Below are positions 1,876-50,845 of a stretch of 64,000 nucleotides of DNA, piece after piece. Numbering within the stretch: position 1 is the stretch's first letter; the number at the start of each line of letters is the position of its first letter. Origin of the DNA: Candidatus Heimdallarchaeota archaeon (GTDB lineage: Archaea > Asgardarchaeota > Heimdallarchaeia > Heimdallarchaeales > Heimdallarchaeaceae). The notes beneath the pieces are model-generated. The model made no database searches. It was not told the origin of the DNA and saw only the letters and a program-made list of their open reading frames with translations. The stretch spans positions 32,001-96,000 of the forward strand of contig JAHLWR010000002.1 of NCBI GenBank assembly GCA_019057815.1, read 5' to 3'. The translations under genes and the position numbers were made by a program.

Positions 1876-2817
1876 ATGAAATGTGACTATCCTAATTGCA
1901 AATCTGATGAAGTGATACTTTTCTATTGCTCTTACTGTAAGGGTTCTTTTTGCCCGTCTCACAAAGATTCTATTACTCACAATTGCAAAGCGTTTACGCA
2001 ACAGACAGGAACAACGCGTCCAACCCCCCAAAGCTCAACATCTCAAACACCGACACCACAAGATGTTATGAGAGCATTTGCATATCAAGTTTCAAGAGCT
2101 GTTGGAGCACAACAATCTCAAACACGAACTCAAGCACCTCCTATGGATGAAAAGGCTAGAAAGAAGTTTATAGAGAAAAAATTAACGGAAAGAGGAGATC
2201 TTTTTTCTTTTGGTAGTGAAATAATAGACATCTTGTTTGGATTTGCTTTGATTGTTCTTGTATTCGGGTTCTTCAGATATGCAAGAACACAAGAATGGAC
2301 AGGATTTGTAGTATCTGGAATCCTTGTTGCAACAGCTTTTCTACCTCATGAACTCGCTCATAAATTTGAAGCTATTAGGAGAGGACAATTCGCGCGATAC
2401 ATTTTGTGGGTTCGTGGAATGATGTTTACCTTAATTACTCTCATTTTTGGTATAGGGTTAATTGTTCCTGGATTTGTTGCAATTGTACCTTTAACTCGAC
2501 AAATGAATAAGAAAGACTTAGGTATTATTGCTTTAGCTGGTCCCGCAATAAATGTTGTTATAGGCGTGGTAAGCTTGGTAATTGGTTTACTTACCCACTT
2601 TGCAATCATCCCATTCAGTGGTCTTTTCTCAGATCCTAACATTTTCATTCAAATTGCTCAATTTAACGCTTTAATAGCACTTTTCAATTGCATCCCTATC
2701 TGGCAGTTGGATGGGGCTAAGATTTTAAAATGGAACAAAGTGATCTTTTTTGTCTTAATACTAGCAAATATAGCAATTGCAGTCCCAACATTTATTTTGA
2801 ATCCTGATCTTTTTTAA
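1876..2817 (+). CDS. AN1-type zinc finger fused to site-2 (M50) intramembrane metalloprotease
   Basis: N-terminal CDYPNC...FYCSYCKGSFCPSH...HNC; HELAH and FNCIPIWQLDG motifs; several TM segments. Confidence 0.85.
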   Translation: MKCDYPNCKSDEVILFYCSYCKGSFCPSHKDSITHNCKAFTQQTGTTRPTPQSSTSQTPTPQDVMRAFAYQVSRAVGAQQSQTRTQAPPMDEKARKKFIEKKLTERGDLFSFGSEIIDILFGFALIVLVFGFFRYARTQEWTGFVVSGILVATAFLPHELAHKFEAIRRGQFARYILWVRGMMFTLITLIFGIGLIVPGFVAIVPLTRQMNKKDLGIIALAGPAINVVIGVVSLVIGLLTHFAIIPFSGLFSDPNIFIQIAQFNALIALFNCIPIWQLDGAKILKWNKVIFFVLILANIAIAVPTFILNPDLF

Positions 2818-2935
2818 TCAATTTTCCAAAAATGATTAAAACAAAAAGTAATAATAGTTATTTAGTTTAGTTAAGTAAAGGATGAACAAGGCATTGCTGA
2901 GAGCATAGCTCAATGACGAATCATAGTTAATCTGA

Positions 2936-3985
2936 TTATCCTTGAATTATTGGATCTATTTCTCTAAGCTCTTTAAGGTTCCTTGCCCCTAGCAAAGCCA
3001 TAACACATTTCATTTCAGTTACATAACTTAATAAATAGGTTCTGAGAGCTTTTTCTCCTCCCCCATTAATAGCTTTAAGAATAGGTAATGCTAAAGAAAC
3101 ATAATCTGCTCCCAGAAGCAAGGCTTTAATCGCTTCAATTCCAGTCCATATTCCCCCAGAAGCGATTATTTTAACATTTTTTTTATTTTCAACGGATTTA
3201 ATATTGAGAATACTCTCTGCCGTAGAAACACCCCAATTCAAGAATTCAGATGACATTAGCTTAATGGAAGGATCAGGATTACGGTAAGTTTCTATTTTCA
3301 CCCAATTTGTTCCTCCTGCTCCAGCAACATCAACAGCATAAATGTCTAATGACATCAAATATTCAGCATCTTTCTTTGATATACCACTTCCTACTCCTTT
3401 AATTATGAGTGGATATTTTAGTTCTTTAATTAACTGTGAAATACTTTTCTTTAAATTCGAAAAATCCTTGTTACCTTCAGATTGTAGAAACTCTTGTTGG
3501 ATATTTACATGCAAAGCTAAACCATCTGCCTTTATCATAGTAATTGCATTTTCCGCATCATTTACATCATACTCATCTATAAATTGACCAATGCCTAGAT
3601 TAGCTAGAAGAGGAATATCAGAAGCGATATGTCTAACTTGATATGTTGTAACTAATTCAGGATTTTCAATAGCAGCACGTTGACTACCTACACCCATTCC
3701 TATAGAAAACTCTTGACAAATTTCCCCTATAATTTCGTTGATTTTTTTTCCTTTTCTGGAACCGCCTGTAATTCCAGATATTAGAATAGGAAAATTAATG
3801 GTTTTATTCAAGAATTTGGTTTCAAGATTAATATCATTTACTGAAAGTTCTTCGAACAAAGAAGGTCGTATTTGTACTTTCTCTAATCCATTAGACATTC
3901 CTTCATACACAACATTGTTTTCCAAACAAATGCGTATATGCTCTTCTTTTCTTCTTGAAATATCTGAAAGAGGTTCTTCATCCAT
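2936..3985 (-). CDS. fni: Type 2 isopentenyl-diphosphate delta-isomerase
   Basis: RRKEEHIRIC, GITGG, GVGSQRAA, HVNIQQE, VAGAGGTNW, ASGGI motifs. Confidence 0.95.
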   Translation of the reverse strand: MDEEPLSDISRRKEEHIRICLENNVVYEGMSNGLEKVQIRPSLFEELSVNDINLETKFLNKTINFPILISGITGGSRKGKKINEIIGEICQEFSIGMGVGSQRAAIENPELVTTYQVRHIASDIPLLANLGIGQFIDEYDVNDAENAITMIKADGLALHVNIQQEFLQSEGNKDFSNLKKSISQLIKELKYPLIIKGVGSGISKKDAEYLMSLDIYAVDVAGAGGTNWVKIETYRNPDPSIKLMSSEFLNWGVSTAESILNIKSVENKKNVKIIASGGIWTGIEAIKALLLGADYVSLALPILKAINGGGEKALRTYLLSYVTEMKCVMALLGARNLKELREIDPIIQG

Positions 3986-4519: not shown

Positions 4520-4789
4520 ATGGAATTTTGCCCAAAGTGCGGGAAACTCCTAATACCTAAAAAGGAGGGTAAAATTAAGAAACTTGTCTGTCCTAACCCT
4601 AAATGTGATTTCGAACAGAAATTAGACTCTGATGTTTCGTACGAAGTTTCTGATAAAGTTAAACACAAAGCTAGTGATATAACTGAAGTGGTTGATGCTG
4701 AAGAGAGTGAAGACTTATCAGAAGAAGAATTAGTGGAAAGAAGAGAACGTTTTATAGAAAACATTGATCTTTATGAGACAGATAATTAA
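4520..4789 (+). CDS. RpoM/TFS-like protein (N-terminal zinc ribbon plus acidic tail only)
   Basis: MEFCPKCGKLLIPK...VCPNPKC; no second zinc ribbon or ADE hairpin. Confidence 0.75.
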   Translation: MEFCPKCGKLLIPKKEGKIKKLVCPNPKCDFEQKLDSDVSYEVSDKVKHKASDITEVVDAEESEDLSEEELVERRERFIENIDLYETDN

Positions 4790-46063: not shown

Positions 46064-46183
46064 TGTAAAATTAGAAATAAAGATTTTTTTTCTGATTTTC
46101 ATGTCAAGTCTTTTCGTTGCAGTCAAAAGCATATATATACCCTCTTTATTTCTTTGAACAAACCGAAAGAGGATGTTGTTATT

Positions 46184-47314
46184 ATGGGACATGATAAAAC
46201 ATGGTTAATTGTAAAAGAAGAACCACTCGCAGGTTACTCTTTACTGAATATTTTTCGAGTTCTTTGGGACAATAAGTTTAGAATGCACCCCAAATACTAT
46301 TTACGATTTTGGTACGCTATTGGATTGAATCTTGTCACTTTACCTTTAAGAGTAATACAAAAAATAAGGTTTCACTCCAAAATAAAGAATACAGTGATTA
46401 AGGAGGATCCTATTTTTATAATAGGTCATTACAGAACAGGAACCACATATTTGATGACTTTAATGGCTTACGATAAGACAAAGGGATATGTTTCTAATAT
46501 TGAGGGATATGCTACACTTTTCTACCTAGCATTTCCAAAATTCACGAGATGGATAATTGAATCGTCATTACCAGATGTTAGACCTATGGATAATGTGATT
46601 ATGGGGGCTGATGAACCTACAGAAGAGGAATATTGTATCGGGACATATACACGATATGGTTACTATACTGGCTTCATATTCCCACGTAACTTTGATCTAT
46701 ATTCAAGATTTCTAACGTTTGAAGGAATGCCTAAGCATTTGGAAAAATGGAAAAAGAACTATTATTATTTGGTTCAGATGCTTACTTTAGGTCACAAAGG
46801 TAAGCAATTATTTCTAAAAAACCCTGCAAATAGTTATCGTATACCTCACATTTTAGAAATGTTCCCCAATGCAAAGTTTATTCATACATATAGAAACCCA
46901 TACAAAACCTACTCGAGTACAGTGAAATTTTTTGATGAGGTTTTCGCCATATATACACTACAAACTTGGGATAAAGAAAAAATGAAACAAGATATTCTAG
47001 ACAACTACAAATTGTTGTATGAATACCACGAAAAAGACTTGCACTTAATTCCAGAAGACCATATTGTTCATGTTAAATATGAAGAGTTCATCAAAGATCC
47101 TGTAACCAATATGGAAAGAATTTACAAAGATTTGAATATTGATGGTTGGGATGAACATAAGGATGACATGATTGCTTACGCTGAATCTCAAAAACGTGAA
47201 TATAAACCTAACATACATATTACTGATGATGATGTTATCCGAAGAGTCAACGAACATTGGAATGATATGCGCGAGAAATACGGTTACGAACGATTAGAGC
47301 CCAAAGAAAACTAA
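46184..47314 (+). CDS. PAPS-dependent sulfotransferase family protein
   Basis: IFIIGHYRTGTT, RPMDN, LKNP, FIHTYRNP...SS, VKYEE. Confidence 0.9.
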   Translation: MGHDKTWLIVKEEPLAGYSLLNIFRVLWDNKFRMHPKYYLRFWYAIGLNLVTLPLRVIQKIRFHSKIKNTVIKEDPIFIIGHYRTGTTYLMTLMAYDKTKGYVSNIEGYATLFYLAFPKFTRWIIESSLPDVRPMDNVIMGADEPTEEEYCIGTYTRYGYYTGFIFPRNFDLYSRFLTFEGMPKHLEKWKKNYYYLVQMLTLGHKGKQLFLKNPANSYRIPHILEMFPNAKFIHTYRNPYKTYSSTVKFFDEVFAIYTLQTWDKEKMKQDILDNYKLLYEYHEKDLHLIPEDHIVHVKYEEFIKDPVTNMERIYKDLNIDGWDEHKDDMIAYAESQKREYKPNIHITDDDVIRRVNEHWNDMREKYGYERLEPKEN

Positions 47315-47708: not shown

Positions 47709-49343
47709 ATGGTTAGCAACATTATAATTTCTCAGAAAGAAGATTGTTCGCCTTTTGAAGATGTTAGAGCAATTAAGGGAGAAGAAGCAATTCTATCAAC
47801 TCACCAAGATTATTGTATCGATGAATCCAAGCTTGCTGGGGGGTATGCGGATTGGTTATTCTTTCCCAAAAATGAAAGGGATATTATTTCTATTGTAAAT
47901 AAGATGAAGGAAGACAAAACACCAATAACTATTTCTGGTGCAAGAACAGGAATCGTCGGATCTGCCGTTCCAACATGTGGTGGAGCTATTCTTTCATTCG
48001 ATGATATGAAGCAAGTAAAGGGAATAAGTTATGATAAAGATACTCAGAAATATTTTGTTAGAATTCAACCAGGGTTAACTTTAGAAGAACTTGCTGATAT
48101 CCTAAAATATAAACGATTTTCACAAGAGCATAATCTTGACGAAGAGGATTGGGTACAGGCTTTTAAAAAGGTTGAAAGGGGACATATTTTCCCAGTGGAT
48201 CCTACAGAAATGACTGCAGCTGTAGGTGGTTCCATTGCAGCTAATGCTTCTGGAGGTAGATCTTTTAAATATGGGGCTATGCGTCCGTGGGTTAAACATC
48301 TACGCGTTGTTATTGAATCAGGAGAAGTTCTTGATATAGAAAGAGGACAATACATAGCTGTTAATAGCAAGTTTATCATTAAAACTTCTGAAAAAGATAT
48401 TGAAATTGATATCCCTACTTATAAAATGCCTGAAGCAAAAAACGCTGCAGGATTATATGCCAAACCTGACATGGATCTTGTAGATCTTTTCATTGGTTCT
48501 GAAGGGATATTAGGAATCATTACGGAAGTGGATTTGTGGCTAATAGAAAAACCTGAAGTCCTAACAAATGCTTTATTTTTTAAAACAGAAGAGGATGCAA
48601 TAAATTTTGTAAAAAAATTACGATCAATAGAAAATTTAGATATAGAATACATAGAATTTTTCGATAAAAATGCTTTCAACTTACTTAGGTCTAGACGAAA
48701 AACCAATCCTGAACTTGCTAATATTGACACAATTCCTGAAGATACAACTACAGCAATATTTTTTGAAATACCATTTTCAGATGATACTTTTGAGGAGATT
48801 TTTGTTACATTAGACGAGATAGCAACAGAGTCTAACACCTCAGTTGACTCAGGATGGAGTGCTTTAGATGATAATGAGCGCGATAAGTTTAGAAAAATAC
48901 GACATGCAGTCCCTGAAATTGTAAATAGCATAATATCAAAAAGAAAAGCAACTTATCCTAATCTTCACAAACTAGGTACAGATATGTCAGTAACAGATAA
49001 TCATCTACAAGATATAATGACATTCTATCATCAAACACTTAAGGAAACTACCTTGGAATACGTAATATGGGGACACATAGGTGACAACCATGTCCACGTC
49101 AACATTTTACCAAAGAACATGGAAGAACTAGATTTAGGAAAACAACTCTACAAGGAATTCGCCAAGAAAGCTGTTGAATACGGTGGATCCGTCTCAGCTG
49201 AGCATGGAATTGGGAAAATCAAGCATGAATACCTGGAAATAATGTACGGAGAAGAAGGCGTAGAACAAATGAGATCTGTGAAAAGGAAACTAGATCCAGA
49301 AGGATTATTCAACAGAGATAATGTTTTTTCATTCACAGGCTAA
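47709..49343 (+). CDS. FAD-binding oxidoreductase (D-lactate/glycolate dehydrogenase GlcD/LctD-like), copy A
   Basis: SGARTG, PVDP, GGSIAANASG, FIGSEGILGII, GHIGDNHVH, SAEHGIG. Confidence 0.9.
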   Translation: MVSNIIISQKEDCSPFEDVRAIKGEEAILSTHQDYCIDESKLAGGYADWLFFPKNERDIISIVNKMKEDKTPITISGARTGIVGSAVPTCGGAILSFDDMKQVKGISYDKDTQKYFVRIQPGLTLEELADILKYKRFSQEHNLDEEDWVQAFKKVERGHIFPVDPTEMTAAVGGSIAANASGGRSFKYGAMRPWVKHLRVVIESGEVLDIERGQYIAVNSKFIIKTSEKDIEIDIPTYKMPEAKNAAGLYAKPDMDLVDLFIGSEGILGIITEVDLWLIEKPEVLTNALFFKTEEDAINFVKKLRSIENLDIEYIEFFDKNAFNLLRSRRKTNPELANIDTIPEDTTTAIFFEIPFSDDTFEEIFVTLDEIATESNTSVDSGWSALDDNERDKFRKIRHAVPEIVNSIISKRKATYPNLHKLGTDMSVTDNHLQDIMTFYHQTLKETTLEYVIWGHIGDNHVHVNILPKNMEELDLGKQLYKEFAKKAVEYGGSVSAEHGIGKIKHEYLEIMYGEEGVEQMRSVKRKLDPEGLFNRDNVFSFTG

Positions 49344-49384
49344 TGTAAGTATTTCTATAAATTTCTTTTTAAAAATAGTTTGCT

Positions 49385-49409
49385 GACTCTGTTAATATTC
49401 AACAGAGTC
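49385..49409. terminator. Perfect 9-bp inverted repeat directly after microprotein 2 stop
   Basis: gactctgtt-aatattc-aacagagtc; lies between convergent genes. Confidence 0.7.
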
Positions 49410-49411
49410 GA

Positions 49412-49531
49412 TTAATTACCAATCAACTGAAATCGAACAGTTTTGGAGAGCATTTCTATTTGATTCAATTTTCTTGAACTTTGGTAAGTTTTTTTGTTTT
49501 TATTTGATCTTTGAGCTGTGTGTCTGTACAT
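49412..49531 (-). CDS. 39-aa microprotein 2 (MYRHTAQRSNKNKKTYQSSRKLNQIEMLSKTVRFQLIGN)
   Basis: SD/start context ataggtgcaaaaaaATG; shares C-terminal motif with the upstream microprotein. Confidence 0.75.
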   Translation of the reverse strand: MYRHTAQRSNKNKKTYQSSRKLNQIEMLSKTVRFQLIGN

Positions 49532-49541
49532 TTTTTTGCAC

Positions 49542-49664
49542 CTATTTCATTGCGCCTACTAATTGTAGTCTGACTAAATTTGTTAGCATTTCAATACTAT
49601 TATATTGTTTTCCATATTCTTGTTCATGTCCGTTTTCCAGTTTTTGAGATGTTTTTTTAACCAT
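49542..49664 (-). CDS. 40-aa microprotein 1 (MVKKTSQKLENGHEQEYGKQYNSIEMLTNLVRLQLVGAMK)
   Basis: SD/start context ataggtgcaaaaaATG; upstream TATA-like ttattaaa; paralogous to the downstream ORF. Confidence 0.75.
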   Translation of the reverse strand: MVKKTSQKLENGHEQEYGKQYNSIEMLTNLVRLQLVGAMK

Positions 49665-49987
49665 TTTTTGCACCTATACATACCATAGAGTCTTATTTAA
49701 TAAGCAATTTTAAAATTCACTTGTTTTACAGCCTAACTCTAAAGTTTACAGAACTTCACTTGAGGAATAAATATACTATAAAGAAGTAAAAGCATTAAAC
49801 CAGATGGTTTATATTGGAAAAAGTGAAGAATTATCCACTAAAACATATAGATATAAGAATAAAGAAGAGATATTAACTGGGTGAATTTGCTATTATATCA
49901 AGAGCTTTTTCTATTTTAATACCCAATTATTTCACCTTTGTCTATCATGAATTGGATTGAATGACAAAAAATTATTCTTTTGTTATG

Positions 49988-50683
49988 TCAACTTAAATCA
50001 ATAGGTGACGATCTTTTTTTTTTCAGAATTTTTTTCATTTTATTAATGTTAACAGGTTTTCCATGTGAAATGTATATTTTCTTTGCTCCTTCCTTGATTA
50101 TACGTTCCCAACTAGATAAAACCTGCTCTATATCTTGTGCAATAGTTGGCAATCCTGAATTTATTCGTAGAGGAAAGCCATGAGCACAACATCCAATGAA
50201 AGCATTACCTTTTTCCGTAATTATCGAAATTGTCCCCGAAGTATGTCCAGGAGTGTGGATTACTTTTGCATTTATACCAAATTCTTGAAGAGAATACTCA
50301 TCCTTAATAACTATATCTGGTTCGACAGGATCAAAAAATTTCAGTGAATTGGGAAGAAGATTGATTAATATCTTACTAATAAATGAAGTGGGTTTTACTT
50401 CAGCTGAGATGCCTTTTCGGAGAAAATTTGCATCATTTTCATGAACTAAAACTTGAGCATTTGATATATCCTTCAAAGCTTTAAGACCACCTACATGATC
50501 AAAATGAGCATGATTGACTATGATGAGCTTTATCGCTTTTGGATCAATATTTTGTTTCTTCAACAAGCGCAAATATTTTTTCACATTTGATTTATACCCC
50601 GCGTCCATCTGAATATAGCCATCACCTGCTTTAAGTAACTGGACTTTTGTAAAACCTAAATTTAGTTCAATGTATTCTTCCAT
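49988..50683 (-). CDS. MBL-fold metallo-hydrolase
   Basis: DAG, NHAHFDHVGG, HTPGHTSG, SHG. Confidence 0.9.
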   Translation of the reverse strand: MEEYIELNLGFTKVQLLKAGDGYIQMDAGYKSNVKKYLRLLKKQNIDPKAIKLIIVNHAHFDHVGGLKALKDISNAQVLVHENDANFLRKGISAEVKPTSFISKILINLLPNSLKFFDPVEPDIVIKDEYSLQEFGINAKVIHTPGHTSGTISIITEKGNAFIGCCAHGFPLRINSGLPTIAQDIEQVLSSWERIIKEGAKKIYISHGKPVNINKMKKILKKKRSSPIDLS

Positions 50684-50845
50684 ACAATTCGACCTTTTTT
50701 TTAACTTCTTATAGTTTTCTAACTTCATTACAGACAGACGCAAAAAGTAAATCAGGGAAAAAAATGACAGATGTGAGAAAATGTGAGATATGATAAATGA
50801 CGTTGAGTTTATATGTAATCAAGATTTTATCAAATTCGGTTACTT

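Follow-up and report, generated by a model that had tools for sequence, protein, structure and literature searches.

A two-gene locus in a Heimdallarchaeota archaeon and its family of predicted microproteins with a conserved promoter

Layout of the two-gene locus

The window, i.e., the whole stretch of 64,000 nucleotides that was analyzed, contains two small open reading frames, ORF1 and ORF2, both of which are encoded on the minus strand. An MBL-fold hydrolase gene lies upstream of the pair, an FAD-linked oxidase gene adjoins it, and a sulfotransferase gene is found nearby (Table 1). The sequencing runs that contain the locus are DNA runs (sediment and cold-seep metagenome). An earlier note, made from the letters of the window, had described two ORFs of about 40 amino acids with a shared leader, the TAG stop codon of ORF1 embedded in the Shine-Dalgarno sequence of ORF2, a TATA-like box, and a 9-bp hairpin 2 nt past the last stop codon; all of these elements are present, and the ORFs read as translated there. 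The TAG codon (49544..49542) falls inside the ATAGGTGC of the ORF2 ribosome-binding site (RBS), and an exact 14-nt direct repeat (49532-49545 and 49664-49677) spans both RBS leaders. ORF2 is the most basic member of the family described below, with a net charge of +8.

The hairpin is a perfect 9-bp inverted repeat (49385-49393 and 49401-49409) that starts 2 nt past the TAA of ORF2. Its predicted fold has a free energy of -14.3 kcal/mol (z = -4.5), and none of 200 shuffled sequences folded equally well. At the sister species' orthologous locus, 7 bp of the stem are kept and the loop is changed. Together with the T5 run, the hairpin would act as a terminator; a scan for bacterial-type terminators did not call the hairpin after ORF2. 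The locus appears to form a transcription unit of its own, made up of two paralogous genes. An exact 12-nt direct repeat, TATTCAACAGAG, has one copy in the hairpin (49396-49407) and another within the FAD-linked oxidase gene at its 3' end (49306-49317), probably by chance. As for the MBL-fold hydrolase gene, the open frame of its counterpart in the sister species (local positions 2699-3148) is just 149 codons long, and the gene may be truncated or frameshifted there.

Table 1. Features of the two-gene locus and its surroundings (positions in the window unless a contig is named)
Feature	Position	Strand	Description
ORF1	49664..49542	-	40 aa; TAG stop; subtype A; family profile E = 1.5e-18
ORF2	49531..49412	-	39 aa; TAA stop; subtype B; family profile E = 1.8e-15
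RBS of ORF1	49670..49677	-	ATAGGTGC; GGTG core 49674..49671; 5 A, then ATG
RBS of ORF2	49538..49545	-	ATAGGTGC; 6 A, then ATG
Family-specific promoter block (predicted)	49680..49762	-	Conservation and repeats
TATA-like TTATTAAA	49704..49697	-	32 nt upstream of the ORF1 ATG
AT-rich palindrome AATTTTAAAATT	49706-49717		Within the promoter block
Two CAAGTGAA(T/G)TT repeats	49713-49723 and 49752-49762		Within the promoter block
Terminator-like element	49371..49409	-	Hairpin 49409..49385 and T5 run 49375..49371
FAD-linked oxidase gene	47709-49343		Adjoins the ORF pair
Sulfotransferase gene	46154-47314		Near the ORF pair
MBL-fold hydrolase gene	49988-50743		Upstream of the ORF pair; 251 codons
Family members in the same genome	Window pair; contig 27; contig 43, 203751-203858; contig 44		Second pair on contig 27; single gene on contig 43; divergent copy on contig 44

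Members of the family and their distribution

ORF1 and ORF2 share a motif of 16 residues at their C-terminal ends, of which 10 are identical, and a recount agreed with the identities and synonymous codon differences that the earlier note had listed. The direct similarity of the two products is weak (tblastn E = 0.02), and their paralogy therefore rests on the family as a whole. The shared motif is nevertheless beyond chance: when the 3.7-Mb genome was translated in six frames, a strict regular expression of the motif matched only three times. All three matches are C-terminal in open frames of 43 to 44 codons, i.e., the two ORFs of the window and a third frame located 122 kb away on the same contig. 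A family profile retrieves members at E = 1e-12 to 1e-23, and the inventory of the genome, compiled from whole-genome profile searches and a local HMM scan, comprises six members at four loci and one pseudogene.

The pseudogene (contig 27, 13213-13302) derives from a fourth ("d") member of the array on that contig; it contains one TGA and one TAA codon, has CTG where the intact copy of the sister species has ATG, and is separated from the array by extra sequence. The divergent sixth member on contig 44 (approximately 66430-66660) is 36 residues long, ends in Y-Q-L-N-L, and has a weak RBS. Behind it stands an ORF of 22 codons that has a good GGTG site and may be a truncated second copy, and the locus sits past two pairs of small antitoxin/PIN-like genes. 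The 36-residue third member on contig 43, the contig of the window, opens a tight operon (203751-206425) that continues with coiled-coil micro-ORFs of 43 and 77 residues, a coiled-coil protein of 486 residues with a C-terminal ArsR-like winged helix-turn-helix domain, and an unknown protein of 224 residues. The same operon is found in the sister species, and a C5 DNA methylase gene adjoins it on the opposite strand.

The pair has relatives elsewhere, with arrays in the genus of the window and in a second genus and a single copy in a third. Eight members were counted in the sister species, among them an array of three genes orthologous to the locus of the window and one of four genes, and the second genus has at least 12 members in arrays of up to five. 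In the third genus, 22 of 25 genomes have a single syntenic copy, in a divergent form that ends in G-[VI]-F-N-Y and that was recovered only with a larger profile; this copy is always flanked by a divergently transcribed gene for an ExoIII-type AP endonuclease and a convergent one for an MFS transporter. Profile searches did not find the family in two single-contig genomes (92 to 93% complete) of a fourth genus or in a fifth genus, and there were no matches in 52 genomes from other families of the class. Among the genomes searched, the family thus appears to be restricted to Heimdallarchaeaceae. Weak profile matches (E = 0.05 to 0.5) in frames of 49 to 66 codons in other genomes were discarded, as the frames have no start codon.

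In the protein databases, approximately 80 clusters of the family were found among 5.8 billion predicted proteins, and an exhaustive HMMER search of 1.8 billion representatives returned 15 clusters. The sequences of the former are unnamed or are called "hypothetical protein" of Heimdallarchaeaceae or Heimdallarchaeota. The claim that the family is unannotated is only partly true, since some relatives are named "hypothetical protein" in NCBI and JGI records. No curated family matches it. Within Pfam, NCBIfam, PHROGs, and the PDB sequences, any one family was hit by at most 2 of 23 members, and no match was better than E = 0.002; Rfam gave only below-threshold matches, and a feature search of the ESM Atlas gave no usable match. 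The protein searches yielded no longer protein with the family motif. An apparent fusion of the A and B subtypes (85 residues; metagenome contig, 717-974), which at first resembled Rosetta-stone support for a heterodimer, was rejected, because it consists of two adjacent family genes split by an in-frame TAG, and the contig yields the fusion only when TAG is read as Gln. The artefact folded as a single helix of 83 residues with no hairpin, a result that is uninformative; the public gene call that merges the two genes in this way is a database artefact.

Comparison of the arrays suggests how the copies arose. ORF1 is a recombinant: its promoter and the first 30 nt of its 5' end match copy "a" of the three-gene array of the sister species, and the remainder matches copy "b". 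This junction points to an unequal crossover that deleted one unit of an ancestral three-gene array. Judged from the sequences, the family is a single syntenic gene in one genus that was amplified in two genera to arrays of two to five diverged copies, and the amplification appears to have proceeded by tandem duplication, unequal crossing-over, and dispersal of the genes together with their own promoter.

Selection on the coding sequence and conservation of the promoter

The earlier note had proposed selection at the protein level, and four kinds of evidence agree with it, i.e., constant ORF length, the RBS, codon usage, and dN/dS. In three genomes, the length is 36 to 41 codons in all of more than 24 diverged copies, each with GGTG-N6-7-ATG, and 12 of the single-copy orthologs of the third genus are 40 to 42 codons long. 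The sequence (T)AGGTG-N6-7-ATG precedes every member examined in the three genera, except the divergent copy on contig 44. As estimated from the base composition of this genome (33% G+C), a frame of 40 codons would be open by chance in approximately 4 to 5% of cases. Codon log-odds scores, trained on 1171 long ORFs from the same genome, are positive only in the annotated frame for all six members of the genome (0.07 to 0.37 bits/codon); true genes score 0.31 ± 0.15, and shifted frames -1.3. ORF1 scores +0.37 bits/codon, and its other five frames are negative.

The dN/dS ratios (Nei-Gojobori) of moderately diverged paralog and ortholog pairs are mostly 0.2 to 0.5. For the single-copy orthologs of the third genus, the median is 0.40 over 66 pairs, with a mean dS of 0.9; a dN/dS of 0.4 is only a moderate constraint. 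The ratio between ORF2 and its ortholog in the sister species is 0.07. The corresponding value for ORF1 is an outlier (2.3), for which positive selection was ruled out by the a/b recombination junction. Taken together, the genes appear to be real ORFs of the translated type under purifying selection.

The region upstream of the genes is more strongly conserved. Approximately 75 nt upstream of the first ATG are nearly identical between the two paralogous arrays of the genome (the window pair on contig 43 and the pair on contig 27) and the orthologs of the sister species. The promoter core reads TTTTAAAAyTsCTTAATAAA, followed after approximately 22 nt by TAGGTGmAAAAAAATG, and is common to the second genus; the third genus has it in a slightly different form. 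In the genome of the window, a 25-nt promoter pattern occurs at the two arrays only, with no match among the controls. The mean identity among the copies of the third genus is 77% in the 60 nt before the ATG, 68% in the coding sequence, and 35% downstream; conservation of the promoter (approximately 60 to 75 nt) thus exceeds that of the coding sequence. In two members of the second genus, the usual promoter is swapped for one with a TGACCAC...TGGTCA palindrome. At these members (local positions 4534-4640 and 2053-2150), TGACCAC-N4-6-TGGTCA stands upstream and a GTGACCA half-site stands near the RBS; the palindrome resembles an operator site to which another regulator would bind.

Predicted structure and possible function

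AlphaFold2, run with an alignment of 39 rows, models the product as one continuous helix comprising residues 2 to 38. The pLDDT averages over successive blocks of ten residues are 63, 65, 85, and 80, i.e., lower in the N-terminal half and higher in the C-terminal half. The products of the family (36 to 42 residues) are virtually free of cysteine, and sequence analysis found neither a signal peptide nor a transmembrane segment in the members. Their net charge is 0 to +8 and the basic residues are mostly in the N-terminal half, while members of subtype A are nearly neutral (0 to +3). The helical hydrophobic moment is 0.25 to 0.73 and, with two exceptions, larger than the beta moment, and nearly all members have a negative mean hydrophobicity. 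The model is consistent with one cationic amphipathic helix with a conserved core.

Across the family, Met1, Lys4, and the Q-L-T center of S-x-I-E/N-Q-L-T-x-x-A are the best conserved. This amphipathic core lies in the C-terminal half and is extended in the genus of the window to ...[RK]-x-Q-L-[IV]-G, an ending that is specific to the expanded genera and is replaced by G-[VI]-F-N-Y in the third genus. The 16-residue motif of the earlier note is indeed shared by the two ORFs of the window, but the most conserved core is the shorter segment around Q-L-T, and the binding face is less clear than had been assumed, since Q-L-[IV]-G is lost in the third genus. The suggestion, in the earlier note, of a disordered tail with a docking helix was right in part: the C-terminal half is modeled with the higher confidence, but the helix is continuous, and the N-terminal half does not drift freely, since within a subtype both halves are equally well conserved.

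Several known short motifs were considered and set aside. A C-terminal Gly-Gly (or GGQ/E) tag of the Pup or ubiquitin type, to which the ...Q-L-[IV]-G-x end had drawn attention, does not fit, because the products of the two expanded genera have a single glycine followed by one to five variable residues, and because in the third genus, the contig 44 copy, and the "d" members the end is replaced (e.g., by N-G-V-F-N-Y or Y-Q-L-N-L), so that a glycine-end motif is not conserved. The MIT-interacting motif of ESCRT-III, the PIP box, and the HbYX motif were dropped for unfit spacing or conservation, as were two further analogies, encapsulin cargo tags and double-glycine leaders. Basic microproteins of the eL29/TMA7/SERF type were dropped, as they have no Pfam support.

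Many functions could be served by a lone amphipathic helix, e.g., binding to membranes or nucleic acids and self-assembly. Our preferred reading, which we hold tentatively and at somewhat less than even confidence, is that the products are cytosolic docking or regulatory helices whose Q-L-T face binds a conserved partner. The two paralogs of the window would be co-transcribed from their own promoter, each product forming one cationic helix, and the microproteins would act in the cytoplasm. The invariant Q-L-T face would bind a cellular partner that is itself conserved, be it a protein or the ribosome or nucleic acid, to which the basic N-terminal half would be suited, and the subtype-specific N-terminal halves would tune what is recruited or blocked. 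Since the promoter is unusually conserved and specific to the family, all copies would be placed under one regulator.

The main variant of this docking reading, which we regard as rather unlikely, is that the small basic helices bind the ribosome or nucleic acid directly, e.g., in the manner of a lineage-specific ribosome-associated or hibernation-type factor or an RNA chaperone. Nearly all members have a net positive charge, with a Lys-rich N-terminal half and a near-invariant Lys4, and the single copy per genome in the third genus resembles a housekeeping gene. The very strong, invariant RBS and the conserved promoter suggest high expression as well. However, subtype A is nearly uncharged, the members have no similarity to models of ribosomal or nucleic-acid-binding proteins (the few weak matches of single members are noise), and the absence of the family from the profile searches of the two single-contig genomes of the same family indicates that it is not universal.

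A bolder form of the docking reading is an "adaptor helix" system of Heimdallarchaeaceae, in which the Q-L-T face would plug into a core machine, possibly a eukaryote-like one (the ribosome, the cytoskeleton, or a membrane-remodelling ATPase), the tandem paralogs with differing N-terminal halves would be interchangeable modulators, and one dedicated regulator would act through the family promoter. We consider this scheme improbable; if true, it would be a new and genetically compact mode of microprotein-based regulation.

Diverged tandem arrays are more typical of dosage- or conflict-driven peptides than of housekeeping regulators, and the products might instead be leaderless exported or membrane-active amphipathic peptides, i.e., archaeal counterparts of the phenol-soluble modulins (PSMs) or of leaderless multi-peptide bacteriocins, with arrays diversified under conflict. 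The tandem arrays of two to five paralogous ORFs of 36 to 41 residues, each with its own RBS and no signal peptide, would fit such peptides, as would the cationic, amphipathic-helical character of the products, the copy number that differs between sister species, and the presence of a pseudogene and a recombinant copy. On the other hand, nearly all members have a negative mean Eisenberg hydrophobicity (-0.2 to -0.75) even in their most amphipathic 18-mer, one half of every peptide is highly polar, no bacteriocin or PSM model is matched, and no exporter, immunity, or processing gene recurs beside any of the arrays. The gene of the third genus, which is single-copy, syntenic, and under purifying selection, looks like one with a cellular function rather than a weapon. 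We therefore give this explanation little credence.

The neighboring genes bear on two further points raised in the earlier note. They differ from locus to locus (an oxidase, an MBL hydrolase, a MoxR ATPase, GcvT, a deaminase, an AP endonuclease, an MFS transporter, and others), and no neighbor recurs among the array loci. This argues against any link in function with the FAD-linked oxidase or the sulfotransferase next to the pair, and also against precursors of modified peptides; the genes of these two enzymes and of the MBL-fold hydrolase are not conserved neighbors of the family. The synteny of the third genus with the AP endonuclease and the MFS transporter genes suggests no particular function. 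The family, in which several paralogs share one conserved segment and otherwise differ by subtype, does resemble precursors of ribosomally synthesized and modified peptides (RiPPs) with a constant recognition segment, whose enzyme would be encoded elsewhere, and dispersed precursor arrays of this kind exist in other systems, e.g., the prochlorosins. Nevertheless, no maturation enzyme, protease, or transporter recurs within approximately 4 to 5 kb of more than 10 loci, the products contain almost no cysteine and no Cys-rich or Ser/Thr-rich core, the supposedly variable halves are conserved within subtypes instead of being hypervariable, and the whole 40 residues are modeled as one helix; the precursor explanation, proposed in the earlier note, is thus very doubtful. 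The least probable explanation is that the locus is a small RNA or a regulatory DNA repeat with incidental ORFs, for which the promoter and 5' region being better conserved than the ORF would speak, and against which stand a frame kept at 36 to 42 codons in all copies at a dS of up to approximately 1 in spite of the low chance of an open frame, an RBS and ATG before each copy, the codon log-odds, a dN/dS below 1, and the lack of an Rfam match.

Eukaryotes have their closest known relatives in the Asgard archaea, whose smallest genes are largely invisible to annotation. The present case shows that multi-copy families can be hidden by a gene-length cut-off. It allows the description of an entire microprotein family with its coding signatures, dedicated promoter, and birth-and-death dynamics, and peptides of 40 residues can be synthesized, which makes the family a tractable target for the study of lineage-specific microproteins in Heimdallarchaeia. 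The family alone settles no long-standing question.

Two groups of known small proteins are the closest points of comparison. The psm-alpha, aureocin A70, and enterocin L50 operons of Bacillota encode PSMs or leaderless multi-peptide bacteriocins. The present arrays resemble them in consisting of tandem paralogous micro-ORFs, each with its own RBS, that encode leaderless amphipathic helices without a hydrophobic N-terminal region and are easily missed by gene callers. Unlike these operons, they encode far more polar peptides, with an N-terminal half rich in K, Q, E, and N in place of a hydrophobic membrane-active helix; they also have no linked exporter or immunity genes, a single-copy syntenic ortholog, an archaeal host, and no homology to the bacterial peptides. 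The second group is formed by the non-membrane small proteins of Methanosarcina mazei, which bind glutamine synthetase or GlnK/AmtB. Like these cytosolic regulators, the products of the family are shorter than 50 residues, have no signal or transmembrane segment, possess their own promoter and RBS, and are restricted to one lineage; with 36 to 42 residues, their own promoter, and the hairpin, they are predicted to be soluble and independently transcribed cytosolic microproteins. They differ from the M. mazei regulators in that there is no sequence relation and that the Heimdallarchaeaceae family is multi-copy and tandem, with a promoter that is better conserved than the gene. It is a new family at the level of sequence within a general class that is already known, the prokaryotic microproteins, and its arrayed and promoter-conserved organization is unusual.
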